From the NCBI GenBank assembly GCA_028823175.1, contig JAPKBZ010000002.1, positions 6,571 through 70,570 on the forward strand: 64,000 nt of DNA, in the 5' to 3' direction. Every line of letters begins with the position of its first letter. Position 1 is the stretch's first letter. This document shows, piece by piece, positions 9,343-62,853 of the stretch. Under the pieces are notes generated by a model that had not been told where the DNA came from, made no database searches, and saw only the letters and a program-made list of their open reading frames with translations. Source of the DNA: Myxococcota bacterium. GTDB taxonomy: Bacteria; Myxococcota_A; UBA9160; UBA4427. A program made the position numbers and the translations under genes.

Positions 9343-9464
9343 GCGAGCCGGCCGACGCTGCCCGCGAGATTGGGCCGAGCGCTTGATCGTCAGCCCGAGG
9401 CGCTTAGGATAGGGGCTCGCCCGGGCGCCGGGGGGGGGACTCCCTCAAGGCGCGGCGATAAGGA

Positions 9465-10445: not shown

Positions 10446-10491
10446 TAGAACTGGCTCTCGGAGCCGGAAGCGGAGGGTTCGGGGCCTGGGG

Positions 10492-35731: not shown

Positions 35732-35748
35732 GAAAACTAGGGGGACAC

Positions 35749-47561: not shown

Positions 47562-48742
47562 GCCCCGTATCCGCGTACACACGACGGAGCGGCCCCTCGC
47601 GACCCGTCCCCTTCTCCCTGCAGTTGGTGTCGCACAAGAAGACCCGTACTGCGGTGGCCGCCGCCGGAATCGGCTTCGCGATTCTGGTCATGTTCGTCCA
47701 ACTCGGTTTCTACGGCGGAGTGCTGAATACGGCGCTCGCCGTTTCGGGCCGCTTCGACGCCGATATCGTTTTGATCTCGCCGCGCTTTGCCTACTTGGGA
47801 GCCACCGGAACGATCCCCGCCAGCCGTCTCTATCAGGCCCAAACCCAGCCCGAGGTCGTCGAAACGACGCCCATCTACTTCCGCTACGCGAACTGGCGAG
47901 ACCCGGTCAACGGTGCAAATTGTCGGCTTTTTGCCATCGGCTTCCCCATCGCCGCCGAGACGGACACTTCGCCGCTGATCCTGCCGGGGGTCACCGAGCA
48001 ATTCGAGGCCCTGAAACCCACCAGCACCGTCCTCCTGGATCGCATGACCCGAGATAAATGCGGTCCACTAGACCCGGAGGGCTGGGTCGAGGTGCGCGAC
48101 CAGCGCGCCCAGGTCGTTGGCGACTTTAAGCTCGGCGTCGGTTTTCTCGCCGACGGGGCGATGCTCATGAGCGACGACACCTTCTCTCGCTTCTTCGCCA
48201 ACCACCCCCTGGACTCGCCCCACCTCGGATTGGTTCGGCTCGCACCGGGCAGCGATGTCGACGAAGTCGCTGAGGCCCTCAAACAAACTCTTCCCAAGGA
48301 CGTCCGAGTCATCACGCAGAGCGAATTAAACGATCTACAGACTCGGCATTGGGTGGAGAACACCGCCGTCGGCGACATCTTCGGGATGGGCACCCTGGCC
48401 GGCTTCCTCGTGGGGTTGGTCGTGCTCTTTCAGATTCTCTCCACCGATATTCGCAATCACCTCCCCCTCTACGCGACACTCCGCGCCATGGGGTATTCCC
48501 GGAGGCAGTTGACCCGCTATGTCATCGAGCAGGCTTGGATCTATGCCCTGCTCGGATTCGGCCCGGCTCTTTTTCTCAGCCTCGGCGCCTTCCCCCTGAT
48601 CCAGGATGCCACCAACCTGCCGATCTACATGACCCCAAGCCTCGTATTGGGCATCCTGGCCCTCAGCCTCACCATGTGTTCCCTATCGGCGCTGATCTCG
48701 GCTCGCCGGCTTCAGCGAGCTGACCCGGCGGAGCTCTTCTGA
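47558..48742 (+). CDS. DevC/MacB-type ABC exporter permease (FtsX domain), paralog 1
   Basis: N-terminal TM, large periplasmic domain, 3 C-terminal TMs, LYATLRAMGYS motif. It overlaps the devB-like stop. Confidence 0.8.
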   Translation: MSPVSAYTRRSGPSRPVPFSLQLVSHKKTRTAVAAAGIGFAILVMFVQLGFYGGVLNTALAVSGRFDADIVLISPRFAYLGATGTIPASRLYQAQTQPEVVETTPIYFRYANWRDPVNGANCRLFAIGFPIAAETDTSPLILPGVTEQFEALKPTSTVLLDRMTRDKCGPLDPEGWVEVRDQRAQVVGDFKLGVGFLADGAMLMSDDTFSRFFANHPLDSPHLGLVRLAPGSDVDEVAEALKQTLPKDVRVITQSELNDLQTRHWVENTAVGDIFGMGTLAGFLVGLVVLFQILSTDIRNHLPLYATLRAMGYSRRQLTRYVIEQAWIYALLGFGPALFLSLGAFPLIQDATNLPIYMTPSLVLGILALSLTMCSLSALISARRLQRADPAELF

Positions 48743-49881
48743 TGCTCAAACTCGTGAGCGCAGTCGTTTTTTCGTTCAGGCTCCTGGTCCACGAACGGGG
48801 GCGCCTGATCGCGTCGGTGGGCGGAGTCACCTTCGCCCTACTCCTGATGCTGCTCCAAATCGGTTTCCGAAACGCCCTCCTGGACAGCGCGATCCAGTTG
48901 CTCCGTCAACTCGACGCAGATGTCCTCGTAATCAACAAGGAGAAGGACCCCTTCCTTGCCATGAACAGAATGCACAACGAGAGGCTCTACCAGGCCCTCT
49001 CCGTCGAGGGAGTCGAAAGCGCTTCCCCCCTCTGGGTCGCTCTCGAGCAGTGGAAGAATCTGGAGGAGCAGACCCTCCACCCGATTCGGGTGATCGGCTT
49101 CAATCCGAACAAGCCAACCTTTCTGATCGATGAGGTAAACGAAAACGTCGACAAACTCAATCGCATCGGGACGGCCTTCCTGGACTCGCACTCCCGAGAT
49201 TCCTACGGCGAATTGCCCGATGACGTCGCACAGGTGAACCTCAGAGAAATCAAAATCGTCGGCAGCTTTCCCTTGGGCACGGATTTCGAAGTCGATGGCA
49301 GCCTTATCGTCTCGGACGAAACCTTCTTCGAGCTGACACGCCAGAGCCCCGACTGGATCGAGATTGCTCTACTCAGGCTCAAGCCCGGTGCCGATATGGA
49401 TCTGGTCCTCGAGAATCTCGCCCTAATACTTCCCGGCGATGTTCGAGCCTTCTCGAAAGCCCAACTGATCGATCGCGACCTCGACTACTGGCGGACGGGA
49501 ACCCCCATTAGTGTCATCTTGCTCGTAGGCGTTGTCCTTGGCTTCGCGGTCGGAGTCGTCATCTGTTATCAGATTCTCTACACCGAAGTTCTCGACCATC
49601 TCTCCGAATTCGCGACGCTCAAGGCCATGGGCTACGGAAACGACTACATCCAAATCGTCGTCATGGTCGAATCCGTGCTGCTTTCCGCCCTTGGCTTCGT
49701 GCCTTCTATACTCCTGGGGTCGCTCATGCTGGCAGCCCTTGGCTGGAGCAGTGGGCTGCCGGCGAGTGTGGGCCTGGGCGATGCTCTCAATGTGGGCCTC
49801 CTCGCCGTCAGCATGTGCACGTTGGCGGGAACGCTCGCGCTGCGCAAAGTCCGCACTCTCGAGCCTGCGGAACTCTTCTAA
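48742..49881 (+). CDS. DevC/MacB-type ABC exporter permease (FtsX domain), paralog 2
   Basis: Same architecture as paralog 1, with FATLKAMGYG motif. TGATG overlap with paralog 1. Confidence 0.8.
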   Translation: MLKLVSAVVFSFRLLVHERGRLIASVGGVTFALLLMLLQIGFRNALLDSAIQLLRQLDADVLVINKEKDPFLAMNRMHNERLYQALSVEGVESASPLWVALEQWKNLEEQTLHPIRVIGFNPNKPTFLIDEVNENVDKLNRIGTAFLDSHSRDSYGELPDDVAQVNLREIKIVGSFPLGTDFEVDGSLIVSDETFFELTRQSPDWIEIALLRLKPGADMDLVLENLALILPGDVRAFSKAQLIDRDLDYWRTGTPISVILLVGVVLGFAVGVVICYQILYTEVLDHLSEFATLKAMGYGNDYIQIVVMVESVLLSALGFVPSILLGSLMLAALGWSSGLPASVGLGDALNVGLLAVSMCTLAGTLALRKVRTLEPAELF

Positions 49882-49957
49882 CTCGAGAGGAAGCCCGGGC
49901 GAAACGAATGTATCCTCAACCCGAAAAATTACGACCGAGTGAGCCCCTGGAGCGCCG

Positions 49958-50659
49958 ATGACTTCCGCAACGAACAAGGCCATTGAAATCGCAGGGCTCG
50001 ACTACTCGTTTGGAACGGACGAAACCGCCAAACAGGTTCTCTTCGAGATCGAGCTCGCCCTCGAACCCGGAGAGTTCGCGATCATGACCGGGCCTTCGGG
50101 CTCGGGCAAGACAACCTTGCTCTCTCTGGTGGGCGCCCTGCGCCGGCCCCAGGGCGGGAAACTGAATGTTCTGGGTCACGACCTCAATACCCTCGAGAGC
50201 CCCGAACTCGAAGGCTATCGCCAGCAACTCGGTTTCATTTTCCAGCTCCACAATCTCTTCCCCGCACTCACTGCCTTCCAGAGCGTCCAAATGGCCGGAG
50301 ACCTTCACCCCGAAGCCGCCGGTCAAATGGACGACCGGATTCGCGCACTCCTGACCCAGCTCGGGCTGGGGGAACGACTCGATTATCGGCCCCACCAACT
50401 CTCGGGCGGCCAGCGGCAGCGAGTCGCCATCGCCCGGGCTCTGGTACACCGCCCGGCCCTCGTCCTCGCCGACGAACCCACGGCTGCCCTCGACGGGGAA
50501 AATACCAAGATCGTGCTCGGGTTACTCGCCGAGCTTGCTCATGAGCGAGGCACCACGGTACTCATGGTTACCCAAGATAACCGAGTCTTTGAGTCGGCGG
50601 ACCGACTCATCAATCTCGTCGATGGTCGGCTGGACTCCGACGTGCGGCTCTCTGAATGA
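49958..50659 (+). CDS. ABC transporter ATP-binding protein (DevA/MacB-NBD-like)
   Basis: Walker [10 protein letters not shown], signature [15 protein letters not shown], Walker B LVLADEPT. Confidence 0.9.
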
Positions 50660-50780
50660 GCCCTGACGAATCAGAACCCAAGATCCCACCATTTCCCACG
50701 ACCGATCCCTCGGCTACGGTCAAAGCCCTGGGGCGCCGCGCGCGGCCGGACCGGCGACTGGGCGAGGAAATTTTTAGCAG

Positions 50781-52370
50781 ATGAGCGAAAAAAACATCCT
50801 GGCGATCGACGTAGGCACGTCCGAAATCAAGGTTGCCCTGGTTTCTCATGCGGGCCAAGTCCGCGACTGCGCCCGCAGCACCCTTGAGGTGATCTACCCC
50901 GAGGCGGGCTGGGCCGAACAGGACCCCTACGCGTGGTGGAGTGCAATCTCGTCCGCCGCCCGGGAACTCTGGAGCCAATCCAGCTTCGACCCGGCGCAAG
51001 TCTCCGCCGTCGTCTTTTCGTGCCAGATGTTCGGAGTTCTGCCCGTGGACTCCGCCGGCAAGCCCCTGATGAACGCCATGATCTGGCTGGACACGCGCTC
51101 CCGGGAACAGGCTCGGGAGATAACCTCGGGGCAGCCCCGAGTCGCAGGCTACGGACTCCCCCGACTCATCAAGTGGCTACGCGCCACCAATGGCGTGCCC
51201 AGCCTGGCCGGACGCGACACGATTTCAAAATTCATATGGCTACGCGACGAAAGGCCCGAGTTGTGGGAGCAGACCGATTGTCTGCTCGACGTAAAGGACT
51301 ATCTCGTCATGCGCTGCACCGGGCGAGCAACGACCACCTACGATCTGGCCAGCGGCGGGTGGCTCTTCAAGACTCGCAAAGGAGAACTCGGTTGGTCGTC
51401 CGAGATTCTTCGCATGCTGGATCTCGACACCAAGCGCTTCCCCGAAGTTCTGCCCTCCACCGAGATCGTGGGCGACCTCGGTGCCGAGGCCGCCTCGGAT
51501 CTCGGCTTGCCCGCGGGCGTTCCCGTGGTCGCCGGCGCCGGCGACGTCCCCTCGTGCGCCGTGGGTTCGGGGGCCGTCAAGGACGGCGAGGTGCATATCT
51601 ACCTGGGCACCAGTTCGTGGGTCGCAACCCACCTCGACGACCGAGCCGTCAATCCCTTCGCGGCCACGGGCACCCTATGCGCGGCGGAGTATGGCAAATA
51701 CATCCTGATTGCCACGCAAGAGACAGCCGGCGCCTCGATGGAATGGGTGCGCAAAAAAATTCTCGGCGGCGAGACCGACTACGACACGATCAACCGCCTA
51801 GTCGAAAATTGCGAGGCGGGCGCGGGCGGCGTGTTCTTCTTCCCCTGGCTCATGGGCGAACGCGTCCCGGTGGACGATGCCACCCTACGAGGTGGGTTCG
51901 TCAACCTCTCTCTCGATCACGACCGGGGGCACCTGCTGCGCGCGGTTTTCGAGGGCGTGGCGTACAACAACCTGTGGGCCCTGGGCGTCGTGGAAAAGCT
52001 CCTTCGAGCTCCCGTCCCCAGCGTTCGGATCACCGGCGGAGGCGCCCAAAGCGATATCTGGTGCCAGATCATGGCCGATGTCCTCGACAAAAGGGTCGAG
52101 CGGGTGGCCAACCCACAATTCTGCGGCGTTCGCGGCGCGGCGCTGATCGCCCTTCGCGCCCTGGGCGAAATCGACCAACTCGACGCCATGAGCGATCTCG
52201 TCGAAGTCACGGATACCTTCGAACCCAATCCAGAGAATCGTGAACTCTACGCCAGCCGCTACCGAAGCTTTCTGGATTACTACAAGCGCAACCGAACCTG
52301 GTTCCGCTCGCTCAACGGGGACCTTGCGGCGGGGGATCCCGATCCAGGCGAGCAGCCTGGCTCAAGGTGA
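50781..52370 (+). CDS. FGGY-family carbohydrate kinase (xylulokinase/glycerol-kinase-like)
   Basis: ILAIDVGTSEIKVALV phosphate-1 motif, later GAGDVPSCAVGSG and GGGAQSDIWCQIMADV motifs. Confidence 0.85.
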   Translation: MSEKNILAIDVGTSEIKVALVSHAGQVRDCARSTLEVIYPEAGWAEQDPYAWWSAISSAARELWSQSSFDPAQVSAVVFSCQMFGVLPVDSAGKPLMNAMIWLDTRSREQAREITSGQPRVAGYGLPRLIKWLRATNGVPSLAGRDTISKFIWLRDERPELWEQTDCLLDVKDYLVMRCTGRATTTYDLASGGWLFKTRKGELGWSSEILRMLDLDTKRFPEVLPSTEIVGDLGAEAASDLGLPAGVPVVAGAGDVPSCAVGSGAVKDGEVHIYLGTSSWVATHLDDRAVNPFAATGTLCAAEYGKYILIATQETAGASMEWVRKKILGGETDYDTINRLVENCEAGAGGVFFFPWLMGERVPVDDATLRGGFVNLSLDHDRGHLLRAVFEGVAYNNLWALGVVEKLLRAPVPSVRITGGGAQSDIWCQIMADVLDKRVERVANPQFCGVRGAALIALRALGEIDQLDAMSDLVEVTDTFEPNPENRELYASRYRSFLDYYKRNRTWFRSLNGDLAAGDPDPGEQPGSR

Positions 52371-53061
52371 GCCCGACGGCCCCGAGGAACATCAGGCCGA
52401 CGTAGATCGCAATGCCGAGCAGGATCCACTCCAGCCCTCCGAGCCACCCGCCCAGGGCTATGGCGAAGACGTAGACGAACTCGAGGCCGACCACCGCCAT
52501 CAGGAGACGATCGGTGGGGCTGAGCCGCTCGGGAATCTCGCTGCGGAAATACGTGGCATCCCGGCTTTGCAGGCTGAAATTGTCGCGAGTCTGGCGATTG
52601 AGGAGCAAGAGCACCGCGAGCCCCAGGGAGAGCGCGACGGCGTGGCCGCCCCAGATGCCCCCGCCCTGACCATCCACAAGGAGTCCGAGCGAGAATAAGA
52701 GCAGGCACCAAAAGCTCATATCGATGGTGCCGTCGAGAATGGCGCCCAAGCGGCTCGTTCGGCCCAGGGTGCGCGCCATGTTGCCATCCACGCAGTCCAT
52801 CACATGGTAAAGAAAGCCGAGGCCCGCGACTCCGAGATAGGCGTGCTCTCCCCCCCAATAGGCGACCGCGGGAAGGCTGAGCGCGATGACCAGGGAGAAG
52901 CTCGTCATCACGAGCACGGGAACTCCCAACCACAGAAAGGGCAACGCGACCCAGAAGGAAATCGGGCGGTAGATGAGGTAGCAGGGAAAATCACCCTGCA
53001 TCTCGGCCCAAGCCTTATCGGGTCCGTAGGAAGCCTTCACGTCGGCGAGTGTGTAGCGCAC
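52312..53061 (-). CDS. CDP-alcohol phosphatidyltransferase family protein (candidate CMP-AEP/CDP-alcohol : lipid transferase)
   Basis: Complete D-x2-DG-x2-AR-x8-G-x3-D-x3-D motif in MDCVDGNMARTLGRTSRLGAILDGTIDM. Multi-TM protein. Start proposed at GTG 53061, 8 nt after GGGAGGAGGG (track start 53091). Last gene of the phosphonate operon. Confidence 0.8.
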   Translation of the reverse strand: MRYTLADVKASYGPDKAWAEMQGDFPCYLIYRPISFWVALPFLWLGVPVLVMTSFSLVIALSLPAVAYWGGEHAYLGVAGLGFLYHVMDCVDGNMARTLGRTSRLGAILDGTIDMSFWCLLLFSLGLLVDGQGGGIWGGHAVALSLGLAVLLLLNRQTRDNFSLQSRDATYFRSEIPERLSPTDRLLMAVVGLEFVYVFAIALGGWLGGLEWILLGIAIYVGLMFLGAVGLTLSQAARLDRDPPPQGPR

Positions 53062-53098
53062 GGGGCTATCCCTCCTCCCCCAGCCTATCACCCTCGGA

Positions 53099-54013
53099 TC
53101 AGCCCGAGGTGAGTTCCAGAAAACCGTAGAAGACCGGCGTTACGAAGAAGAATGCGTCGTAAACGTCCAGCACGCCGCCCTGAGTGGGGACCAGGTTGCC
53201 GTAATCTTTGACCCCGGCCCGTCGTTTGAGCGACGAGGCGAAGAGGTCTCCGCCGAGCCCCGCCAAACCGATCAGGATTGCCGCACTCGCGACGCGCCAC
53301 GGGCCAAAACCCGGCACGGCAAAGGAAAAAGCGAAGCCCACAGCGACGGTCCCCAAGAGCCCACCCACGACGCCTTCGAGGGTTTTGTTGGGGCTCAATA
53401 CCGGGAAAATTTTACGCTTGCCGATCCCGCTCCCCACGAGGTAGGCGAAGACATCATTCGCCTCGACCAGGCCGTAGAAGAAGATCGCGTAGCCGAAGCC
53501 CTCTTCCCGCAGCCCGAGAGAAAGAAAGGCGGCGAGGCACAAGCCGGGGTAGACAAAACCGAGGCCCGTGCTGGTCACCCGGGCGAGAGGCGAATCCGGG
53601 GCAGCCCCGCGGGATGAAACGATCCAGCGCAGCGCCCCATAGAGCCCCAGGGCCACGGGAAAGAGCCAGCCGACGGCATCCGGCGACTGGTAAACGAAGA
53701 GAATCGACCCAAGCGCCAGGGCAATTCCCACCCCGGCCCACGGCTGCTCCCCGCCGACCTTCAGGGTGGTGTAGAGCTCCCGCGTGCAGAGCCCCGCGAG
53801 CAGCAGCACCCCGGCCAAGAGCCAACCGCCACCCAGGTAGGCCGGCCCCCAGATGCCGGCCAAGATGCCGACTTCGACGAGGAAGCGGGTCCCCATGCGG
53901 GACTGGGAAGCTGTCCGCCCCCGCACGGCCCACTGACCCAGCACCCAAGCCCCGGCGACCGCGAAGATGGCGCCGAGGGTCAAGAGCAGGCGAAGTGCGA
54001 TCTCCTGTTTCAA
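53099..54013 (-). CDS. divergent CdsA/CTP_transf_1 family protein (phosphatidate cytidylyltransferase-like)
   Basis: Polytopic membrane protein. The C-terminal SSLKRRAGVKDYGNLVPTQGGVLDVYD resembles the CdsA signature but reads Q for the HGG His and V for the D-[RK] basic residue. TTG start 1 nt after the phnW stop. Confidence 0.7.
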   Translation of the reverse strand: MKQEIALRLLLTLGAIFAVAGAWVLGQWAVRGRTASQSRMGTRFLVEVGILAGIWGPAYLGGGWLLAGVLLLAGLCTRELYTTLKVGGEQPWAGVGIALALGSILFVYQSPDAVGWLFPVALGLYGALRWIVSSRGAAPDSPLARVTSTGLGFVYPGLCLAAFLSLGLREEGFGYAIFFYGLVEANDVFAYLVGSGIGKRKIFPVLSPNKTLEGVVGGLLGTVAVGFAFSFAVPGFGPWRVASAAILIGLAGLGGDLFASSLKRRAGVKDYGNLVPTQGGVLDVYDAFFFVTPVFYGFLELTSG

Positions 54014-54014
54014 A

Positions 54015-55130
54015 TCAGGCGCTTCCCTTCACACTCTTGAGGTAGCGACCCAGCGCGGCAAGAAAGTTCTCGATATCTTGGGCATCGATCGCCCCCAGCA
54101 CCGCCAAGCGGAAGGTCGGCTGGGCTCCGGGCTTGCCGGGATAGATGGTAAAGCCTTCGGCATCCAGAGCGTCGTGCATGCGGTCGAAATCGTACCAGTC
54201 CTCGCTCGGCTCGTGGATCGCCACGAGGATCTGGCTCTGGTCCTCGTCCTCGAGGAGGAACTCGAAGCCCAATTGACGCAAGCCTGCCATCAGGGTCTGC
54301 ATACTCTCCTGGTAGCGCTTCTGGCGTGCGGGGATCCCCTCGGCATCGAGTTCGACAAGCGCTTGATGAAGCGCCGACACCACCTGGGGAGGCACCGTGA
54401 AGCGACTCTGGCCCGTCTTCTCGAGATGATCATGCTCGGCCACCAGATCCAACACGTAGCAGCGCCGGGGCGTCGGGCGAATCTCGTCGAGCAGTGCCCG
54501 GGTGGTGATAGCAATGCCCAGCCCCGCCATCCCCTGGACGCATTTGTTCGAGCTCGAGAAGAGCATGTCGACCGCGTGTTCACCCACCTCGATGGGCATC
54601 GCGGCAAAACTCGACATGGCATCGAGCATCAGCTTGAGACCGTGGGCGTGGGCTCTCTCCACCAGCGCGTCCAAGGGGTTAAGAAGACCCGAGCTCGTTT
54701 CGTGATGGATCGCGAAGAGGTGGGTCGCCCTCCCCTGCTCTTCGGCGAGTACGGCGTCGAGGGCCTCGAAGTCGATCCGCTGCCCCCATCCCAATTCTAC
54801 TCGCCGGTGGTCGATGCCGTGGGCGGCCGCGATTGCCGCCAACCGTGTCCCATAATCTCCGTTATCCAGAATCAGCACCCGGCCACCCGATGGGATCAGG
54901 CTGACCAGGCCCGCCTCGAGCACCGTGGTCCCACTGCCCACCACGGGGATCGCGACCACCTCGTCGGGATCACCCGCCAGGGCCGCGAGCCGCTGCCGAA
55001 CATCGGAATAGAGGTCACAAAAGCTGCGCTCCCGGGGACAGATATCGGAGATCACCAGAGCCGCCTTCACCGATTCGGTGGTCGTCGCCGGGCCTGGGTT
55101 GAGCAAGACGTTTCGCTTGGGCATATCCAT
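54015..55130 (-). CDS. phnW: 2-aminoethylphosphonate--pyruvate transaminase
   Basis: Start reassigned to ATG 55130 (GGAGA SD). LLNPGPATTTESV, SGTTVLEA, and the PLP-Lys motif SSSNKCVQG. Class V aminotransferase adjacent to ppd and pepM. Confidence 0.85.
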   Translation of the reverse strand: MDMPKRNVLLNPGPATTTESVKAALVISDICPRERSFCDLYSDVRQRLAALAGDPDEVVAIPVVGSGTTVLEAGLVSLIPSGGRVLILDNGDYGTRLAAIAAAHGIDHRRVELGWGQRIDFEALDAVLAEEQGRATHLFAIHHETSSGLLNPLDALVERAHAHGLKLMLDAMSSFAAMPIEVGEHAVDMLFSSSNKCVQGMAGLGIAITTRALLDEIRPTPRRCYVLDLVAEHDHLEKTGQSRFTVPPQVVSALHQALVELDAEGIPARQKRYQESMQTLMAGLRQLGFEFLLEDEDQSQILVAIHEPSEDWYDFDRMHDALDAEGFTIYPGKPGAQPTFRLAVLGAIDAQDIENFLAALGRYLKSVKGSA

Positions 55131-55146
55131 GCTTTTCTCCTGTGAT

Positions 55147-55941
55147 CTATTTCTGCGCGCCGAGTTCGCGGCTCGAGGGCGATGAGGAAGGAGCGGCCAC
55201 CTGCCCGGAAGCCCAGCGGGGCCACACCTCGTCTCGCACGCGGAGGTAGTGGTGTTCGTAGTCGACTTCGCCCCACAGCAGGTCGGGAACCAGGCGCAGG
55301 GCCACCGGGCGCTCGCCTGCGGCTTCGACCAGAGCGTCGGTCTCATACGCCATCTGGCCATGGCCGTTTTCATCGACAAAGCGCGCATAGGCCCTGGCCA
55401 TCGCCTGAGCCAGGGGATGAGAAATGCGCACGATGCCCACCAGTTCTCCGTAGACCTCGCCGAGTTCGGCGGGGTCCTTGGACATGCCCCGAAGGCAGCC
55501 GTCCGAGGCTTCGATCCAGACCTCATCGGTCGCACCGGTGGGGCCTGAAGCCAAAAGAATATCGGGCGCTTCGTCTTCCAGTAGGACATCGAGGGCACGC
55601 TCTTCGTAGAAGAGATCGCTCTCGAGAAGAAGGAAATCTTCATTCACCTCTTCGAGGGCGCGGGCCAGGGACGCCATGCTGCCGGTGGTGGCAAACTCGG
55701 CGTTCTCCACCACTTCCAAGCCGGCAAGCTCGGCGGCCAGGGCTTCGTAAGCCGACCCCATATGCCCCGAGACAATGACGATCCGCTCGATACCCCTTTC
55801 CTGGAGCAACCGAACCGAACGATGGATCAGCCCTTCCCCGCCGATTTCCACGAAGCCCTTCGGGCGATCCGAAAAAACATTCTTGAGGCGCGTTCCCATA
55901 CCCGCCGCCAGGATCACCGCCGCTCTCGGTCGGTTGGCCAT
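55147..55941 (-). CDS. LicC/PntC-like nucleotidyl(cytidylyl)transferase
   Basis: Canonical G-loop AVILAAGMGTRL...RPKGFVEI. ATG 55941 overlaps the ppd stop (TGATG). Confidence 0.8.
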   Translation of the reverse strand: MANRPRAAVILAAGMGTRLKNVFSDRPKGFVEIGGEGLIHRSVRLLQERGIERIVIVSGHMGSAYEALAAELAGLEVVENAEFATTGSMASLARALEEVNEDFLLLESDLFYEERALDVLLEDEAPDILLASGPTGATDEVWIEASDGCLRGMSKDPAELGEVYGELVGIVRISHPLAQAMARAYARFVDENGHGQMAYETDALVEAAGERPVALRLVPDLLWGEVDYEHHYLRVRDEVWPRWASGQVAAPSSSPSSRELGAQK

Positions 55942-57125
55942 CAACCCCGACCTGCCACGGCATCCCGAAAGGCCAGTGCGATCTCCTGGGGCGAAAGCGC
56001 CGGTCGCTCGAGGCCTTCGGCTTCCCGCTCATCCACCTCGATCTGGAGCAGAACCGGCCCCTGCCCGGCCTCGCTCGCGGCCCACTCCAGTGCGCCCTCG
56101 AGACCACCGGCTCCGCGACAATGGGCGGCCGCCCGGTAGCCGCAGGCCAAGGCGGCAGCCGGGAAATCGACATGGGGCGAAACTGTAAGCTGGCCTCCGG
56201 TGGAGGCGTAGGTTCCGTTATCGACCACCACGTGGGTAAAGGCCCGGGGCGCCAGGGCGCCGATGGTGGCAAGGCTGCCGAGACGCATGATCAGCGCTCC
56301 GTCTCCGTCGAGGACGTGGACGGGCCTGCCGCCGGGTGCACTGCGCTCGAGCCCCAGGGCGATTGCCGAGGCAAAGCCCATGGAACCCTGCATCGGAAAA
56401 TGTCGATCCACCATCCCGTGGGAGGAAACCTCTCGCGACATGAAGCCGGTGGTCGAGACCGCCAGGGCGTCGGGGTAGCGTTGCAGCCAAGCCCCCAGGG
56501 CTTCGGTTCGACTCGGCAACTCCCCGCCGCCGAACGCCCGGACCGAAGGGGTATCCGAAGCGGCTTGCCGGGCTAGGATCGGAGCCGCGCGGCGAGCCCC
56601 TTCGCCCTCCGAATCCGCGGAAGGCTTTTGGAAGAGGCCGCGCGGAACAATCAGCGCCGCGGGGCGACGCTCCTTGCGCATATAGGCCACCGCATCGCTG
56701 ACCGCGCGATCCAGATCTGTCTCTTCGCGGAGCACGGTAGCCGGAATGTCGAGCAACTCGAAGAGGCCCGGAGTCGCGGCGCCCATCGGATAGTGGTGGA
56801 CCGCATCCTTCTTACCCGGCTCACCCCGCCAGGAGACGATCATCAGCACAGGAATCTCATAGGGGATGGAGAGAGACGCCAAAGGGTTCACGGCGTTCCC
56901 CAGCCCCGAGTTCTGCATCATTGCGGCGCCCAGCCCACCTCCGAGCCACATGCCCGCGGCGGCAGAAACCGCCTCACCTTCAACCGAGGCCGGGATATAA
57001 TCGATCTCCGGCGATGCTTCGGCCTCGAGGGTCAGATGGTTGAGGATGGAGCAAGGAACGCCGGCAAGACCGGTGATTCCCGCGCCGAGCAGCGCGCGAA
57101 AGAGAACTTGCGGATCGAGGGGCAA
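55941..57125 (-). CDS. phosphonopyruvate decarboxylase (ThDP-dependent)
   Basis: ThDP motif GDGALIMRLGSLATIG...VVVDNGTYASTGGQ. About 390 aa, located between pepM and phnW. Confidence 0.85.
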   Translation of the reverse strand: MPLDPQVLFRALLGAGITGLAGVPCSILNHLTLEAEASPEIDYIPASVEGEAVSAAAGMWLGGGLGAAMMQNSGLGNAVNPLASLSIPYEIPVLMIVSWRGEPGKKDAVHHYPMGAATPGLFELLDIPATVLREETDLDRAVSDAVAYMRKERRPAALIVPRGLFQKPSADSEGEGARRAAPILARQAASDTPSVRAFGGGELPSRTEALGAWLQRYPDALAVSTTGFMSREVSSHGMVDRHFPMQGSMGFASAIALGLERSAPGGRPVHVLDGDGALIMRLGSLATIGALAPRAFTHVVVDNGTYASTGGQLTVSPHVDFPAAALACGYRAAAHCRGAGGLEGALEWAASEAGQGPVLLQIEVDEREAEGLERPALSPQEIALAFRDAVAGRG

Positions 57126-57167
57126 GGGTGGAGCCTCCGCTCGGCCGAAGTCGGCCTGGCAAGGGGT

Positions 57168-58820
57168 TTAGACGTCGCCGCTGCGAGCGACATCGGCCAG
57201 GCTGTTGATATCGATCCAGCCGCCATGGACATAAATGACCCGGATCGCGCGAGGGTCAGCCTGGGCGAGGTCGTCAAGCAGTGCGCACAGGTCGAGCTGG
57301 GCGCTCCCGGGCCGGGCCAGGGCCGAGTCCAGGGCCTCCTGGAGCGACTCCACCCCCTCACCGCGAACCCGAAGCATGCCGATCCACTCTCCGTGGGTCA
57401 TTTCCTCGGGCAAGCCCTCGGAGGCGGCTTCCAGCCAGTTCTCAGACTCGTCGTACGCGGTCGGAGCCGGCCCGGAAACCTTCACCCGGTCGACACTTCG
57501 ACCCGATTCCAGGAAGGAACGCGAGCCGTCCACCACCAGGGTGATGGGCGCGTCGGACGAGAGCAGCAGGTGCAGGATATAGCGTTTGAAAACCACATCG
57601 CCGTAGGCAATGATCGTGTCGCCCTTGATTGCTTCTCGAGCCACAGCAAGTGACCCCAGCTCTCCGTTCTCTTCCCAATCGGGGTTGTCAAAGAACTTCG
57701 CGCCCACTGGTGCGAGAGCCTCGGGCCGATAGCCGCGAACCACAGAAATATCCTTGATGCCCTCGGCGCGCATACTCTGCAGCATTTTCTCAATGGCCGG
57801 CATGCCCGAAACGGGAATCATCGCCTTGGGTCGATCCGCAGTGAGCTCATCGAGGCCCGCGCCCCGGGACGCAGCCAACACCAGAGCCGTCACTCCCGAC
57901 TCCTTGTGCAGATAAGTCTTTTCGCCCTCGAGCAAACCGTCGGCATCCTGAAGTCGAAAGACTTCCTTGACCGGAGCGATCGCGTCCTCGAGATCTCGGG
58001 CAGTTCCCTTTTCACCGATCTCGTTCGCAACCGACTGCATGGCGCCGATCCCCGCGCGCAGCATGTGGTTCGCCCAGATCACCAGGGAAATTCCCGCTTG
58101 GTCGAAGGCCTCCATGGGCGTGCTGTAGTAGGTGGTCGGCACGCAGACCACAGGGGCCCGGCCGCTCCACTTCGACATAAAATCCTGGACCTGACCGAAG
58201 GTGCGCTCCTTCGAGTGAATCAGGATCGCATCGGCACCTGCATCCACATAGCTCTCGGCGCGATCGATCGCCGCTGCCGTATCCAGACCGACGATCAAAG
58301 CCTCGGTCCGGGCCACCACGACAAAATCAGGATCCGTCTGAGCGTCCTTGCCCGCACGAAGCTTGCCCGCGAATTCTTCCACCGGTGCCAGAGATTGGCC
58401 CTCCGAGCGCAGGAAGGAGTTGGTCTTCGGGAAAATCTTGTCTTCGATGCAAACGCCGCCCACTCTGCGCAGGCAGAGCTTGCGAACCAGTTGCTGGAAA
58501 TGGCTGAACTGGCCGTAGCCCGTATCCCCGTCGAAGAGGATTGGGATATTCGCCCGGGCAGTGATGCTCTCGAGCACCTCCAGCACTTCAGTCATGGTGA
58601 GTTCACTGTTATCGCGCAGGCCCGCGGCGCAGGAGAGGGTCAGCGAACTCGCCCAAAGGCCCGAGAGACCGGCCTCCTCGACGATGGTGGCGGAGAGCGA
58701 GTTGTGGGCCTCCAGGATCTGCTCGACCCGGGGACTCTCCAAAAGCTTGCGAAGCTTCTTTGAATTACTTTCCAAGATGCTGTTCTGGTTCATTTTTTGA
58801 CCCCATATCCTTTTGATCAA
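57168..58820 (-). CDS. phosphoenolpyruvate mutase (PepM) fused to a C-terminal nucleotidyltransferase-like domain
   Basis: PepM-diagnostic EDKxxxxxNS (CIEDKIFPKTNSF) in the N-terminal ~300 aa (isocitrate-lyase/PEP-mutase fold). The C-terminal ~250 aa is NTP-transferase-like (ALVLAASRGAGLDELTADRPKAMIPV). MNQNS (58793) is an alternative start. Confidence 0.9.
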   Translation of the reverse strand: MIKRIWGQKMNQNSILESNSKKLRKLLESPRVEQILEAHNSLSATIVEEAGLSGLWASSLTLSCAAGLRDNSELTMTEVLEVLESITARANIPILFDGDTGYGQFSHFQQLVRKLCLRRVGGVCIEDKIFPKTNSFLRSEGQSLAPVEEFAGKLRAGKDAQTDPDFVVVARTEALIVGLDTAAAIDRAESYVDAGADAILIHSKERTFGQVQDFMSKWSGRAPVVCVPTTYYSTPMEAFDQAGISLVIWANHMLRAGIGAMQSVANEIGEKGTARDLEDAIAPVKEVFRLQDADGLLEGEKTYLHKESGVTALVLAASRGAGLDELTADRPKAMIPVSGMPAIEKMLQSMRAEGIKDISVVRGYRPEALAPVGAKFFDNPDWEENGELGSLAVAREAIKGDTIIAYGDVVFKRYILHLLLSSDAPITLVVDGSRSFLESGRSVDRVKVSGPAPTAYDESENWLEAASEGLPEEMTHGEWIGMLRVRGEGVESLQEALDSALARPGSAQLDLCALLDDLAQADPRAIRVIYVHGGWIDINSLADVARSGDV

Positions 58821-58906
58821 TCAAGTTTGATCCGGCCTACGAACTCAGTCGTTGCCGGAGGATAGCCCTGGCGACCCCGGTCGGTATCCCCCGACCCACC
58901 CCGCCC

Positions 58907-60061
58907 TCAAGTGTTCGTCGCGCCGCTCCCGTCGACCCGGATTCGCGCCGCGTTTTCGTAGACGCTTTCAATTCTCTCGGCAACGCTCGGCCACGAGTAT
59001 GCCAGCGCCGTTTTTCGCCCGGCCTCGCCCATTCGCTCGAGCACCACCCGATCGCGCAGCACCCGCCCCAGACCTTCGGCCAAGGCTTCGGAATTCGGCT
59101 CATCAACCAGCCAGCCATCGACGCCGTGGCTGACCACGTCCCGGTAGCCGGGGATCGCAAAGGCCACGGGTGGCCGCCCCGCGGCCATGGCCTCGAGCAG
59201 AACGATCCCCTGGCTCTCCTGACCTGTCGCCGGCGAACAAAAGACATCGCAACTCGCGTAGTAGCCCGCCATGTCTTCGGGTGCCGCATAACCCTCAAAC
59301 TCGATAGCGGTCCGGGCACCTTCGCTAAGTCCGGCGAGATCGGCCTCGACTTCACTGGCCTGGGCACCGACGACGACCAACCGCAATCCCTCGATATCGA
59401 CTCGAAGCCGATCGAAGGCTCGAAGCAGGATCGAAAGTCCCTTGCGTGGGTCGGCTCTCCCGACAAAAAGAATTTTAGGACGATCATCATCCAACCCGGG
59501 CAGGCGAGAAGCCTCGGGATGAAAGCGCGCCGTGTCCACACCATTGGGGATGATCTCGTAATCGCCCGGGAAATAGTGGGCGATGCTTCGGCGGGCTTCG
59601 GCGGAGACCGCGATCCGCGCATGCATGCGTTCCCACGCCGGTCGCGAGATCGCCCCGAGTCGGCGAAAAAGCGTCTCCCACAGGAACGACGGTTCAAAGT
59701 TCGCGTGAAAGGTACCCACCGTGGTGCACTCCGACGCGTAGAGAGCAGCCACGGCCAGAAAGGGTTCCATCGGCGCGTGAACATGAACCACGTCGAGGGC
59801 ATGGCGGCGCAAGGAGCGGCGAAAATTCAAGATTTCCCGGCCCAGCACCATCCGGGAAAGAGCACCGTTGCTCGTAAACTTGTATTCGAACCCGAGGCGC
59901 AAGACCTCGGGCCCCTCGTCCTTCCAACCGGGCGTGGCCGGTCCGGTGATGACCTTCACCTCGTGCCCCCGGGCCGAGAGTTCCTCGGCCTGGTGGTGGA
60001 CGTGCTCGGAGATACCGCCGGGCCATGGCCGGTAGTACTCCGTCACTATGCCAATTCGCAT
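58907..60061 (-). CDS. GT4-family glycosyltransferase, PimA-like
   Basis: Start reassigned to ATG 60061 (MRIGIVTEYYRPWPGGISEHV...). GT-B/GT4 C-terminal motif ESQGIVLLEAMAAGRP. It sits 86 nt upstream of pepM on the same strand. Confidence 0.85.
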   Translation of the reverse strand: MRIGIVTEYYRPWPGGISEHVHHQAEELSARGHEVKVITGPATPGWKDEGPEVLRLGFEYKFTSNGALSRMVLGREILNFRRSLRRHALDVVHVHAPMEPFLAVAALYASECTTVGTFHANFEPSFLWETLFRRLGAISRPAWERMHARIAVSAEARRSIAHYFPGDYEIIPNGVDTARFHPEASRLPGLDDDRPKILFVGRADPRKGLSILLRAFDRLRVDIEGLRLVVVGAQASEVEADLAGLSEGARTAIEFEGYAAPEDMAGYYASCDVFCSPATGQESQGIVLLEAMAAGRPPVAFAIPGYRDVVSHGVDGWLVDEPNSEALAEGLGRVLRDRVVLERMGEAGRKTALAYSWPSVAERIESVYENAARIRVDGSGATNT

Positions 60062-60522
60062 CTGGAATCCTCGCAGTGGATCGGGCGTTGCCCCACAGGC
60101 TTTTCCCAGCCTTCCCGGGCAGTGCCGCCTCGAGCCAGGGCCCAGCGGAGGAGGCACAACGCGTGGCCTGTCGGCGCAAACCAGGGCTCTCGCGCGGATT
60201 TTCGGGAGGCAAGCGTGGACGCCTCGGCGGCCATCGCGGCGGGAACCTATCACAGGCGGCGAGCCTCGGCCCTCGCCTAAAAACCACGTCACCCCGGGGA
60301 TACGCTGAGCCCCAGAGGCCGGCCTGGCACCCCCAGGTGCGTCCTAGAGCGCTGCGGTTACTCTCTCGGCATGCTCAATAGACCTATTTCTGAGCGGGGG
60401 ACGACCGAAGCCACCGTCCCCCGAGCCTCGAAGCACCGCCCCCCCGCCGGGAATCCGGCCGGCCAAGCGCGACAGACCGGTTCCCCTCGCCGCTCCCCGC
60501 GCCCGCCCGGGCCGCTTCCCCG

Positions 60523-61185
60523 ATGATCGACGAGCTCTACAAGGACCGGATGGATACGGGCTGGGACCGCGTCGGGCGCTGGGTCGCGCGCAGCGGCCTG
60601 ACCCCCAACGCGGTGACCTGGCTGGGGATGGCGCTCTGCTCCGGCAACGCCCTCGCGTTCTGCTTCCATCAGAACTTCTGGCTCTTCGGCCTGCTCGTCG
60701 GGCTGATCGAATTGCTCGACAACGTCGATGGGGCTGTGGCTCGGGTGACCGGGCTCAGCAGCCGGCGGGGCGCCTACCTCGACGCCACCACCGATCGCTA
60801 CAAGGATTCTCTGATCCTCCTGGCCATCGCCTACGTCACGGGTTTTTGGCTGCCCGCCACCCTGGCCATCACGGGCTCGCTGATCACCAGCTACGCGGCG
60901 GCGCGAGCCTCCATGCTCGGTGCCCACGGCGATGCGAGTGGAGGCCTGCCCGATCTCTTCGAACGACTCGAACGCACCGCGACGCTCTGCCTCGGACTCG
61001 TGGCCGCACCCTTCTGCCCGCCGATCCTGGGCCACGCACTGATGTGGTGGGTGCTCTACTTCGTCGCCGCGATGACGCATATCACTGGTTTTCAGCGCAT
61101 CGCACGAAGGCTCGGGGAACTCGACGTCCTCGACGCCGGGGATGCTTCAGCGACCGCGAACGACGACTCCGGGCAGACGCCCTAA
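60523..61185 (+). CDS. CDP-alcohol phosphatidyltransferase family protein (phosphatidylinositol-phosphate-synthase-like size and layout)
   Basis: LDNVDGAVARVTGLSSRRGAYLDATTDRYKD contains the DG-x2-AR...G-x3-D-x3-D motif. 220 aa with ~5-6 TM. Divergent from the GT4/pepM operon. Confidence 0.8.
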   Translation: MIDELYKDRMDTGWDRVGRWVARSGLTPNAVTWLGMALCSGNALAFCFHQNFWLFGLLVGLIELLDNVDGAVARVTGLSSRRGAYLDATTDRYKDSLILLAIAYVTGFWLPATLAITGSLITSYAAARASMLGAHGDASGGLPDLFERLERTATLCLGLVAAPFCPPILGHALMWWVLYFVAAMTHITGFQRIARRLGELDVLDAGDASATANDDSGQTP

Positions 61186-62747
61186 AGGGCTCCGCCGATC
61201 CGAGCCTCGAGCAGCGCCCGATTACTCGCATAATCGACCAGGGCTGCGAGCAGCATGCTCTCCGCCCGCACGAGTTCGGCGTCGGCGTCGGTGATATCCA
61301 GATTACTCGCCAGCCCCATCTCGAAACGCCCCCGGGCAATCTCGCCCTTATTGCGGGAGTTCTCGACTTGTAGGATCAGGCTCTTGAGCCGCTCGATTCC
61401 CTCGCGCAAGCGAATTTCCACAGCGCGCACCTCGAGCTCGATATCGCGCTTCTGGCGCACAAACTCTCGCCGAGTCTGGGCCCGCAAAGCGCGAAAACGC
61501 GACAGCCGCGATCGCGGCCCGACGTTCCCAATCGGGAAGTCGAAGGCGACGCCCGCGTTCCAATTCCAGCTCTTCCAGTCGAAACCCGGCTGAAAACCGC
61601 CGCGGGCCTCGAGATTCGGGAGGGTGTCGTTCTTGGCGACTCTGACCGCCAGCTCGGCCTTCTCGAGCTTCGCCCGCATCCGGGCCATTTCGGGTCGGTC
61701 CTCGAGGGCCCGAGCCACCCAATCATCGAGTTCGATTTCGAGGGGCTGAAAGGGAATCGTCAAATCCATCACATCCACTTGCATCTGGGCATCGAGTCCG
61801 ATGACCTTGCGCAGATCGTTTTGAGCAATCTCCAGATCCGCTCTTGCCGTGGCTAAACGCGCCTGGTTATTGGACTGGCTGATCTCGGCGCTATAGACGT
61901 CCACCTTGCTGACCCGGCCCGCCTCGAAGAGGGCATCCGACGCTCGGATCAGCTCGGCATCCCGGCCCAGGGCCTGCTCGATCACCTCGATCTGTCGCAG
62001 CGCCTGGATCACTCGGTAGTAGGCACTCTTCGTGCCCGCCGTGACGTTCAGGATTTCCGAGCGCAATTCGGCCCGGCTGATCTCCGTGTCGTATTCCGCA
62101 TCGAGAATCTCGCGACGGGCGACAAAGATGCGCCCGCCCCGCAGCAGGGGTTGGCGAATTTCGATCCCGAGCCCGCCGAGCTCGCTCATGCTTTCCAGAT
62201 TGGCCCCCGCACCAGTCGCGAGATCTTCGTTGTACTCGTTCTTGAATTCGCGCGAATAGCCGACCCCCAGCGCGACGCTCCCGCCCGTGGGCACCTGCTG
62301 ACGAAGCGTCGCCTGGGCCTGCTGGTTCTGAGTGAACTCGTCCTGTCGGTCCGAGTGGGCCCGCTTGGTTTCGAAGGCGGTGCCCTCAATGGCAAGAATC
62401 GGGTGAAATTTGGATCGCGCCCCGGTCACATCGCTCTCCCGGGCGTCGAGTTCGAGCGCGACGATCTGCAGGCCCAGATTATTCTCGAGGGAGGCTTTCA
62501 CGGCGCCCTCGAGGGTCAAGCCGAGGCGCTCGCGCACCAGCGGCGCTCCAACATCATCGCTTTGATCCAGAATCTGGCGGACAGCCTCGAGATCCAAATC
62601 GGAAATCGAGCCGACTTCAAGGGCGGGTAGCGGGCTCTCATCAGGCCGCGCGCCGACCCCCGCCGAGGGCGACAGCATCAACAACGCCGAAATCACGAGC
62701 AGGGTCCGTACCTGGCTCGCGATTCCGCAAGTTCGTATGCGCCCCAC
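61182..62747 (-). CDS. TolC-family outer-membrane efflux protein
   Basis: Two OEP repeats with long coiled helices. Start proposed at GTG 62747, 6 nt after GGAGAGG, which gives the signal peptide ...LLVISALLMLSPSAGVGA (track start 62837). Confidence 0.8.
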   Translation of the reverse strand: MGRIRTCGIASQVRTLLVISALLMLSPSAGVGARPDESPLPALEVGSISDLDLEAVRQILDQSDDVGAPLVRERLGLTLEGAVKASLENNLGLQIVALELDARESDVTGARSKFHPILAIEGTAFETKRAHSDRQDEFTQNQQAQATLRQQVPTGGSVALGVGYSREFKNEYNEDLATGAGANLESMSELGGLGIEIRQPLLRGGRIFVARREILDAEYDTEISRAELRSEILNVTAGTKSAYYRVIQALRQIEVIEQALGRDAELIRASDALFEAGRVSKVDVYSAEISQSNNQARLATARADLEIAQNDLRKVIGLDAQMQVDVMDLTIPFQPLEIELDDWVARALEDRPEMARMRAKLEKAELAVRVAKNDTLPNLEARGGFQPGFDWKSWNWNAGVAFDFPIGNVGPRSRLSRFRALRAQTRREFVRQKRDIELEVRAVEIRLREGIERLKSLILQVENSRNKGEIARGRFEMGLASNLDITDADAELVRAESMLLAALVDYASNRALLEARIGGAL

Positions 62748-62853
62748 TCTTCGCCTCTCCCTAGACTCCGTCTCGCCCCTGGCATTCCAGCCAGCCCCTC
62801 GCTCGACCCTCTCGGGCTGCACGTGCAAAATTACCACACATGCGCTGTTCCCC

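Follow-up and report, generated by a model that had tools for sequence, protein, structure and literature searches.

A 2-aminoethylphosphonate operon in an uncultured Myxococcota bacterium, with a candidate CDP-alcohol phosphotransferase for lipid attachment

What becomes of 2-aminoethylphosphonate (AEP) in a bacterium that makes it, and which enzyme would attach it to the cell envelope? The question is raised by a 64,000-nucleotide stretch of chromosomal DNA from an uncultured, apparently marine Myxococcota bacterium (GenBank assembly GCA_028823175.1, contig JAPKBZ010000002.1, positions 6,571 to 70,570; hereafter the window), in which seven co-directional minus-strand genes with coding-type GC content at third codon positions occupy 52.3-60.1 kb. 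About half of the bacterial clusters with pepM, the gene for phosphoenolpyruvate (PEP) mutase, are thought to decorate cell surfaces; large predicted phosphonolipid families stand without a characterised product, and a bacterial enzyme that moves a phosphonate activated by cytidine monophosphate (CMP) onto a lipid has not been identified (PMC8942020, PMC6697681). The window locus is a compact gene set in which a clear orthologue of the AEP cytidylyltransferase PntC is joined by a candidate transferase, here called CDP-OH_A, of a small and distinct subfamily of CDP-alcohol phosphotransferases; that AEP becomes lipid-linked through CDP-OH_A is the reading we favour and consider reasonably probable. 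Gene identities, motifs and linkage are read directly from the DNA, whereas every substrate and product beyond CMP-AEP is predicted from them. The genes of the operon, in order of transcription, are as follows.

58907-60061, minus strand: PimA-like glycosyltransferase of family 4 (GT4), first operon gene, 384 aa; an independent gene call also gives 384 aa
57168-58793, minus strand: PepM with a C-terminal LicC-like NTP_transf_3 domain, 541 aa, or 550 aa from an upstream TTG at 58820
55941-57125, minus strand: phosphonopyruvate decarboxylase Ppd/AepY (TIGR03297, TPP_enzyme_N, TPP_enzyme_C)
55147-55941, minus strand: PntC, predicted AEP cytidylyltransferase, a free-standing LicC-like nucleotidyltransferase (NTase), by homology to Tde1415 PntC
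54015-55130, minus strand: AEP:pyruvate aminotransferase PhnW, of the biosynthetic AepZ type (TIGR03301)
53099-54013, minus strand: divergent CdsA-family membrane cytidylyltransferase (Pfam CTP_transf_1), here called CdsA-like
52312-53061, minus strand: CDP-OH_A, CDP-alcohol phosphotransferase, 249 aa (Pfam CDP-OH_P_transf, motif)

This layout agrees with a public contig that was gene-called independently (locus L048; comparison loci carry L numbers throughout), where the CdsA-like protein is identical to that of the window and all gene lengths are equal. The spacers called there are 113, 42, -1, 16, 1 and 37 nt, the first of which shrinks to 86 nt if pepM starts at the upstream TTG; the spacers of the original prediction, made from the sequence alone (86, 42, -1, 16, 1 and about 37 nt), match these calls, with the first depending on the pepM start. 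The seven minus-strand genes and the motifs quoted in that prediction, EDKIFPKTNS, AAGMGTRL and Dx2DGx2ARx8Gx3Dx3D, are real in the window's translations, and the domain models of Pfam and NCBIfam identify all seven genes as they had been named.

Complete AEP synthesis at this locus is supported by homology. The three enzymes proposed at the outset, PepM, Ppd and PhnW, all pass the cut-offs of NCBI's curated equivalog models: PepM scored 340.3 bits against TIGR02320 (cut-off 319.55), Ppd 333.1 bits against TIGR03297 (cut-off 312.5) with both of its thiamine diphosphate domains found, and the transaminase 382 bits against the PhnW-AepZ model TIGR03301 (cut-off 360.8), while it stayed below the PhnW model TIGR02326 (316 vs. 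400.8 bits). The PepM motif EDKIFPKTNS fits the diagnostic EDKxxxxxNS, which sets PepM apart from the rest of the isocitrate-lyase superfamily, and the protein matched the PEP mutase structure 1M1B with 301 bits. Together, PepM, Ppd and the AepZ-type transaminase would convert PEP to AEP. A catabolic or salvage role for PhnW was considered and rejected, since PepM and Ppd are present, the transaminase scores as an AepZ, and the approximately 40 window open reading frames (ORFs) scanned against Pfam included no gene for C-P cleavage of the phosphonatase type. The NTP_transf_3 domain fused to PepM (residues 312-421) is more distant than the free-standing PntC, with 35 bits against LicC.

CMP-AEP synthesis from AEP and CTP by the window's PntC is well supported, because the protein is homologous over its full length to the PntC domain of Treponema denticola Tde1415, shares its key residues, and Tde1415 activity has been measured. 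A phmmer search of the Protein Data Bank (PDB) aligned residues 8-243 with residues 4-237 of the Tde1415 domain (6PD1/6PD2; E 2e-48, 168 bits), and the 42.5% identity to this crystallised enzyme gives substance to the LicC/PntC-like cytidylyltransferase named in the original prediction. R19, K29 and the lysine of an 'SK' pair align with R15, K25 and K153 of Tde1415, the residues its authors chose for mutagenesis, with a catalytic role assigned to K25; CMP-AEP formation and a preference for AEP were both measured for that enzyme (PMC6697681).

The candidate for the transfer step, CDP-OH_A, is placed among the CDP-alcohol phosphotransferases (PF01066) by its motif, its Pfam score and its multi-helix model. 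It scored 31.7 bits against CDP-OH_P_transf (gathering cut-off 22); its motif reads D-CV-DG-NM-AR-TLGRTSRL-G-AIL-D-GTI-D, intact as first described and invariant in its defining residues across 35 homologues, with the last Asp conserved in at least 90%. Conserved, too, is an N-terminal segment, SYxPEKAWAEMQGDLPCYLIYRPISF. The AlphaFold2 model (pLDDT 93, pTM 0.89) has the all-helical fold typical of the family, and its top Foldseek matches were AF2299 and IPCT-DIPPS, followed by phosphatidylinositol-phosphate (PIP) synthases, with TM-scores of about 0.6; the donor of IPCT-DIPPS is a soluble CDP-alcohol, and as a hint to the donor of CDP-OH_A the modelled likeness is suggestive only. When the CDP-OH_A alignment was run as a profile against the PDB, AF2299, CHPT1/CEPT1 and PIP synthases all scored weakly and almost alike, so that this search does not decide the donor. 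The family is small (of 1.84 billion representative clusters, 64 match at E<=1e-30 and 469 at E<=1e-10), and close homologues were found only in metagenomes and metagenome-assembled genomes (MAGs) of uncultured Myxococcota and 'Deltaproteobacteria'; a tblastn search of the PLSDB plasmids returned only an unrelated Lactiplantibacillus match at motif level.

Genomic context also bears on the donor. Distant members of the CDP-OH_A subfamily (27-35% identity), which spans four phyla and often lies beside pepM, adjoin LicC/PntC-type NTases. A SAR202 operon has the order NTase, CDP-OH, PepM-NTase, Ppd and iron-dependent alcohol dehydrogenase (Fe-ADH), with no glycosyltransferase; Spirochaete clusters hold PepM, Ppd and a fusion of PntC with an AEP transaminase (AEPT) within 5-8 kb of the CDP-OH gene; and a Bacteroidales locus consists of CDP-OH, NTase and HAD, a proposed Kennedy-like inositol-lipid cluster that is itself unconfirmed (PMC9246714). 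Since the subfamily is repeatedly paired with soluble head-group activators, its genomic company argues that CDP-OH_A takes CMP-AEP rather than CDP-diacylglycerol as donor. The best reading of these comparisons is AEP transfer from CMP-AEP to a membrane-bound alcohol: in a Kennedy-type reaction, CDP-OH_A would move the aminoethylphosphonyl group to the hydroxyl of a membrane-anchored acceptor and release CMP, and the product would be a phosphonolipid.

The SAR202 operon (L032, 8868-14515) has a near-identical copy in a Rhodospirillaceae MAG (L029, 2590-6847), with Ppd split. The tblastn identities of the two are identical despite binning to different phyla, which points to a binning error or a recent transfer; their predicted product is 2-hydroxyethylphosphonate (HEP), not AEP.

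On both sides the operon borders genes that the original prediction omitted, a second CDP-alcohol phosphatidyltransferase (CDPOH_B), a TolC-family channel, and a convergent block of FGGY kinase and ABC exporter genes (46548-52370).

60062-60522: divergent intergenic region of 461 nt between the GT4 operon and CDPOH_B, presumed promoter region
60523-61185, plus strand: CDPOH_B, PIP-synthase-like CDP-alcohol phosphatidyltransferase
61182-62837, minus strand: TolC-family outer-membrane channel (Pfam OEP 167 bits; TIGR01844 116 bits, below cut-off)
50781-52370, plus strand: FGGY-family kinase, xylulokinase-like (FGGY_N, FGGY_C)
46548-50659, plus strand: exporter operon of the MacB/DevBCA type (Pfam HlyD_D23, FtsX/MacB_PCD, ABC_tran)
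46548-47561, plus strand: HlyD-like adaptor of this exporter
47558-48742 and 48742-49881, plus strand: its two FtsX permeases
49958-50659, plus strand: its ABC ATPase

The GT4 protein matched Pfam Glycos_transf_1 (132 bits) and Glyco_transf_4, and its best solved relative is mycobacterial PimA (2GEJ/4N9W) with 161 bits over the full length, the next match reaching 73 bits. CDPOH_B has its best PDB match in the Mycobacterium tuberculosis PIP synthase (PIPS; 6H53/6H5A), and scored below the NCBIfam cut-offs for archaetidylinositol-phosphate synthase (126 vs. 180) and PIP synthase (87 vs. 170). By homology, a PimA-like GT4 would pair naturally with a PIPS-like CDPOH_B; Pfam scans of the window ORFs found no inositol-phosphate synthase. 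The FGGY kinase scored 344 bits against the XylB model TIGR01312 (cut-off 380) and 183 bits against xylulokinase in the PDB, and its presence as a conserved partner suggests a polyol phosphate other than that of inositol. CDPOH_B adjoins a CdsA-like gene in all related loci, and in L043 and L046 the FGGY gene shares 4 nt with the end of the CdsA-like gene. The exporter is kept beside FGGY and the CdsA-like gene in L041, L042 and L044, and L043 has an adjacent fused MacB/FtsX permease at the contig end; TolC is conserved next to CDPOH_B in the window lineage and in L041, and is likely the exporter's partner. More broadly, the set of CdsA-like, FGGY and PIPS-like genes, usually with the MacB/DevBCA-type exporter, recurs in Myxococcota and in Acidobacteriota (Vicinamibacteria), also without phosphonate genes; TolC accompanies it in the Myxococcota loci, and no published description of the set was found.

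The CdsA-like protein matched Pfam CTP_transf_1 with 168 bits over its full length and is a member of that family; against the NCBIfam model of CdsA (PRK11624) it reached 76.6 bits, where the cut-off is 385. Its subfamily signature reads KRRAGVKDYGxxxPTQGGVLDVYD, compared to KRxxGVKDSGxxxPGHGGxLDRxD in canonical CdsA, and the Asp columns are invariant in both; the window protein has SLKRRAGVKDYGNLVPTQGGVLDVYD, with H replaced by Q and R by V. The residue within KD-x-G is Y, where the aligned canonical enzymes have S or F. Across the subfamily, three near-universal signature positions carry fixed changes (S to Y/F, GH to TQ, and R to V/L), and the protein departs from the canonical pattern, which we take to be S-x-[LIVMF]-K-R-x4-K-D-x-[GSA]-x2-[LIF]-[PGS]-x-H-G-G-[LIVMF]-x-D-R-[LIVMFT]-D, so that both signature and equivalog score place it outside housekeeping CdsA. 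The original label of a divergent CdsA-like protein is therefore apt, and the signature changes, with the Asp columns kept, suggest an altered lipid or nucleotide substrate. Its assignment to a dedicated AEP branch does not hold: an FGGY kinase and a PIPS-like CDP-OH transferase accompany the subfamily without exception, pepM-less loci included, and it tracks these partners in L041 and L043, where phosphonate genes are absent. Distant CdsA-like genes occur in two other contexts (L047, 3646-10520; L045, 162-9197), one of which is a sphingolipid-like set with fatty-acyl-AMP ligase, acyl carrier protein, epimerase-family reductase and a class I/II aminotransferase that is possibly serine-palmitoyltransferase-like, and the other lies beside a polyketide synthase of 3011 aa.

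Comparison across genomes indicates how these parts belong together. The nearest genome is the MAG Myxococcota bacterium cluster2_bin.41, whose cluster proteins are all 92-97% identical to those of the window, and 11 species-level Myxococcota genomes share the order TolC, CDPOH_B, (GNAT), GT4, PepM-NTase, Ppd, PntC, PhnW, CdsA-like and CDP-OH_A, followed by FGGY and exporter. Within this lineage, GT4 and PhnW are missing from L011 and PhnW from L017; in L015 (MAG TMED88) and L016 (MAG cluster2_bin.176), at approximately 6000-10800, PepM and Ppd are lost while GT4, PntC, CdsA-like and CDP-OH_A are kept, and PhnW is truncated in L015 and full-length in L016. PntC proteins 58-62% identical to that of the window thus occur without pepM nearby in L015, L016 and L044, the L044 copy being 62% identical with no pepM within 10 kb. 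Farther afield, in L042 and L046, AEP genes of 45-64% identity are reunited with the same core in another arrangement; in L046 the orthologous AEP module (55-57% identity) is joined to CDPOH_B, CdsA-like and FGGY in a new order. The recurrence of the order in 11 species-level genomes, together with the rearranged phosphonate and partner sets of L042 and L046, means that the arrangement is not due to chance. L041, from a complete 6.25-Mb genome, has TolC, CDPOH_B, CdsA-like, FGGY and the exporter without PepM, PntC, GT4 or CDP-OH_A; L043, from Vicinamibacteria, has CdsA-like, FGGY, CDPOH_B and the MacB/FtsX permease with no phosphonate genes, besides a fatty-acyl-AMP-ligase::GNAT fusion and a Stealth protein. 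PntC and CDP-OH_A co-occur in the window lineage, L042 and L044, and both are absent from L041 and L043. The island is modular: CdsA-like, FGGY, CDPOH_B and, in most loci, the exporter form a core; PntC and CDP-OH_A, usually with GT4, form a head-group module; and PepM, Ppd and PhnW form a supply sub-module.

In L042 and L044, CDP-OH_A lies 6-7 kb from the CdsA-like gene and adjoins a sulfatase-family gene (PF00884), whose product of about 525 aa is encoded directly upstream of CDP-OH_A (L042, 16323-18638; L044, 16569-19816); the L044 CDP-OH_A also adjoins a Stealth protein. As EptA-type phosphoethanolamine transferases and LtaS belong to the same PF00884 superfamily, lipid-bound AEP could serve as donor for a second, periplasmic transfer. 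The window has no gene of this family.

To which acceptor, then, would AEP be transferred? We give about the same probability to diacylglycerol, which would give a C-P analogue of phosphatidylethanolamine, and to a glycolipid produced by the neighbouring genes. The former is favoured by the precedent of the Kennedy pathway, by the Bacteroidales relative, by the SAR202 operon with its lack of a glycosyltransferase and by the GT4-less L011; the latter is favoured by the position of GT4 as first gene of the operon and its co-variation with PntC and CDP-OH_A, by the LicD gene at the equivalent place in L046, and by the glycan clusters that surround the Spirochaete relatives. The original prediction of a lipid AEP head group, as opposed to a LicD-type glycan decoration, thus stands in part: CDP-OH_A belongs to an NTase- and pepM-linked subfamily, and a tblastn search with accessory proteins found no LicD in the window, and sequence favours neither diacylglycerol nor a glycolipid as acceptor.

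Several observations weigh against the lipid attachment of AEP by CDP-OH_A. No enzyme of the subfamily has been assayed, and sequence and fold comparison do not separate CDP-diacylglycerol from CMP-AEP as donor. The need for two NTase domains at one locus, one fused to PepM and one free-standing, is unexplained. The loss of PepM and Ppd in L015 and L016 and of PhnW in L011 and L017 means that the head group is not always AEP made in cis; these variants suggest AEP salvage, a different head group, or a pepM elsewhere in the genome. In L046, no CDP-OH_A is seen, and LicD takes the place expected for it. The Spirochaete relatives, finally, sit in polysaccharide clusters, so that the acceptor could be an intermediate on the way to a glycan and not a finished lipid. 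Taken further, AEP might end on a non-lipid glycan (capsule, exopolysaccharide, O-antigen or glycoprotein), with CDP-OH_A acting in the manner of LicD on a polyprenyl-linked or polymeric sugar and the lipid genes unrelated. The Spirochaete CDP-OH_A relatives lie between GT4 genes and beside an initiating Bac_transf, a beta-helix protein and LicD, the LicD of L046 follows its CdsA-like/FGGY pair, and Stealth-type hexose-phosphate transferases and GT2s occur in L043, L044 and L046; yet Bac_transf, Wzx/Wzy, LicD and all other genes for polysaccharide assembly are missing from the window, the sole glycosyltransferase there is of the PimA-like, lipid-directed type, and the partners that are conserved, CdsA-family and PIPS-like, are lipid enzymes, which leaves a glycan destination unlikely, though the most credible of the competing explanations.

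The reverse chemistry is considerably less probable still: the CdsA-like enzyme would make CDP-diacylglycerol, and CDP-OH_A would place the phosphatidyl group on HEP or 1-hydroxy-AEP, leaving the C-P group free. The CdsA-like gene does share the operon with CDP-OH_A and lies 37 nt upstream of it, the SAR202 CDP-OH gene is paired with an Fe-ADH that should give HEP, the transaminase is missing in L011 and L017, and Burkholderiales clusters contain a 2-oxoglutarate (2OG) oxygenase with 1-hydroxy phosphonate products predicted (PMC8942020). However, tblastn found no oxygenase or Fe-ADH homologue in the window, AEP itself has no hydroxyl group, and the close Tde-PntC homologue would be left without a role; moreover, the CdsA-like gene tracks CDPOH_B and FGGY, not CDP-OH_A, from which it is 6-7 kb apart in L042 and L044. 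It is harder yet to credit that the two membrane enzymes of the operon are the housekeeping CdsA and PssA/PgsA, set beside a phosphonate cluster by chance. The full-length CTP_transf_1 match and the invariant Asp columns of the CdsA-like protein would fit such an accident, but its signature is replaced at three positions and its equivalog score is 77 bits against a cut-off of 385; CDP-OH_A scored no higher than 20 bits with the models for pgsA and ClsA and did not match that for pssA, its family comprises just the 64 clusters at E<=1e-30, and it is absent from the otherwise syntenic L041 locus in a complete genome of 6.25 Mb, which makes the housekeeping explanation very improbable.

Returning to lipid attachment by CDP-OH_A, the AEP operon would be inserted into a conserved lipid island with a chemistry of its own. 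The CdsA-like enzyme may supply a CDP-activated lipid and the FGGY kinase a phosphorylated polyol, which CDPOH_B would join to a phosphatidyl-polyol phosphate; the PimA-like GT4 would glycosylate this product, and the MacB/DevBCA-type ABC exporter with TolC would carry it to the outer membrane. A bolder proposal, which we regard as doubtful, is that the whole island (46.5-62.8 kb) builds and exports an undescribed lipid class, a phosphonoglycolipid resembling glycosylphosphatidylinositol (GPI) or phosphatidylinositol mannosides (PIM): the CdsA-like, FGGY and PIPS-like enzymes would assemble a phosphatidyl-polyol, GT4 would glycosylate it, PntC and CDP-OH_A would add an AEP cap, and the MacB/DevBCA-TolC system would export it. 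The phosphonate cap would then be an optional module, gained and lost among Myxococcota and Acidobacteriota.

The FGGY kinase and CDP-OH_A genes converge and share 59 nt at their 3' ends (52312-52370), an overlap kept in the closest relatives L007 and L048; no terminator could fit between the two operons. Promoter, terminator and Rfam scans of 46-64 kb found nothing beyond chance, and terminator-like sites in particular were not above shuffled expectation (16 found vs. 12.8 +/- 3.5); the intergenic region at 60062-60522 contains no ORF of coding-like composition and no Rfam match. The remainder of the window consists of ordinary chromosomal genes (pheT, dnaJ, GAPDH, acyl-CoA dehydrogenases and two autotransporters). 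The autotransporter genes at 25426-28809 (1127 aa) and 35698-38895 (1065 aa) encode C-terminal beta-domains, the second also PATR passenger repeats, and are unrelated to the AEP operon.

The original claim that no dedicated bacterial gene set for glycerophosphonolipid synthesis had been defined was too strong, because the idea of a pepM/PntC/CDP-OH phosphonolipid cluster is already in the literature and such clusters have been predicted (PMC8942020); it remains correct in so far as such clusters still lack a characterised product or enzyme, and searches of the available literature library for CMP-AEP and phosphonolipid biosynthesis found no defining paper on a bacterial transferase of CMP-AEP onto lipid or on a glycerophosphonolipid transferase. 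New here are the CDP-OH_A subfamily, its context of PimA-like, PIPS-like and CdsA-like enzymes, and the modular island. A link between the subfamily and pepM is seen in Myxococcota, in SAR202 (together with the near-identical copy binned as Rhodospirillaceae) and in Spirochaetes, and the activity proposed for CDP-OH_A, if true, would supply the transfer step that is missing. There would be consequences for marine phosphorus cycling too; the isolate and contig names of several related MAGs (MED660, TMED88, TaraRedSea) mark them as marine. The same comparison uncovers the conserved island of CdsA-like, FGGY, PIPS-like and exporter genes in two phyla.

Among known systems, the Pnt pathway of Treponema denticola shares the logic of AEP, CMP-AEP and a cell-envelope acceptor; there PntC is fused to the transaminase in a neighbourhood with LicD and glycan genes, whereas the window has separate genes and a candidate transferase of the CDP-OH family (Tde1415; Rice et al., 2019, PMC6697681). 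The proposed chemistry, in which an enzyme of the CDP-OH family hands a soluble CMP- or CDP-activated head group on to a lipid alcohol, is also that of the eukaryotic Kennedy-type enzymes CEPT1 and CHPT1; CDP-OH_A resembles them only at motif level (about 24 bits; Foldseek E above 0.7), and their donor is a phosphodiester, whereas the donor in the window would be the phosphonate CMP-AEP. The LicCA/Cpt route to phosphatidylcholine in T. denticola is likewise Kennedy-type. In the Bacteroidales NTase/CDP-OH/HAD cluster, the CDP-OH protein is a distant relative of CDP-OH_A and a LicC-type NTase would be the activator, as proposed here (PMC9246714).

The remaining island genes recall two other systems. 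In mycobacteria, pgsA1 and pimA are neighbours, as are the window's genes for a GT4 most similar to PimA and a CDPOH_B most similar to the M. tuberculosis PIP synthase; in contrast to the actinobacterial PgsA1/PimA pair, CDPOH_B falls below the PIPS cut-offs, an FGGY kinase is the conserved partner, and the window has no inositol-phosphate synthase. The exporter is likened by its parts list (HlyD-like adaptor, FtsX/MacB-type permeases, ABC ATPase and TolC channel) and by its place next to genes for lipid or glycolipid synthesis to MacAB-TolC and to DevBCA-HgdD, the heterocyst-glycolipid exporter whose HgdD is the TolC component, and differs from both in having two permease genes.

The closest parallel to the AEP operon is the 'Burkholderiales_CDP-OH' group, for which Li and Horsman (2022) described 318 neighbourhoods with a seven-gene core and no characterised product (PMC8942020); as cited there, its counterpart in Yu et al. 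(2013) is Group 1 of the predicted phosphonolipids. Its core comprises a Ppm-PntC fusion, Ppd, AEPT, a second PntC, a 2OG-Fe(II) oxygenase and two phospholipid-type genes. The clusters used for comparison were those of Mycetohabitans rhizoxinica pBRH01 (L038) and of a Roseomonas marmotae plasmid (L040; related, without an annotated oxygenase), in which one of the two phospholipid genes encodes a CDP-OH transferase and the other an LPG-synthase-domain protein. The Mycetohabitans cluster is neighboured by dxs, ispH and an MMPL transporter, and the Roseomonas cluster by ispH, hpnH, shc, hpnE and a polyprenyl synthetase, which hints that the Burkholderiales-type phosphonate may be attached to, or co-regulated with, hopanoids.

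Shared with this group are the PepM-NTP_transf_3 fusion (46-48% identical to the Burkholderia and Mycetohabitans AepX), Ppd, AEPT, a second PntC and a CDP-alcohol phosphatidyltransferase-family protein, and the product is uncharacterised in both. In contrast to the Burkholderiales clusters, the window has, by tblastn, neither the 2OG-Fe(II) oxygenase nor the LPG-synthase-domain protein, and has the CdsA-like enzyme and the PimA-like GT4 instead; the Mycetohabitans CDP-OH protein has a likeness to CDP-OH_A that is confined to the surroundings of the catalytic motif (28% over 82 aa), and is weakly closer to CDPOH_B; and the Mycetohabitans and Roseomonas clusters lie among isoprenoid or hopanoid genes, whereas the window locus lies in an island of FGGY, PIPS-like and exporter genes. 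Membership of the window in the Burkholderiales_CDP-OH group was rejected on the absence of the oxygenase and LPG-synthase-domain homologues and on the different CDP-OH subfamily; the window locus is a parallel solution that shares the early logic of that group.

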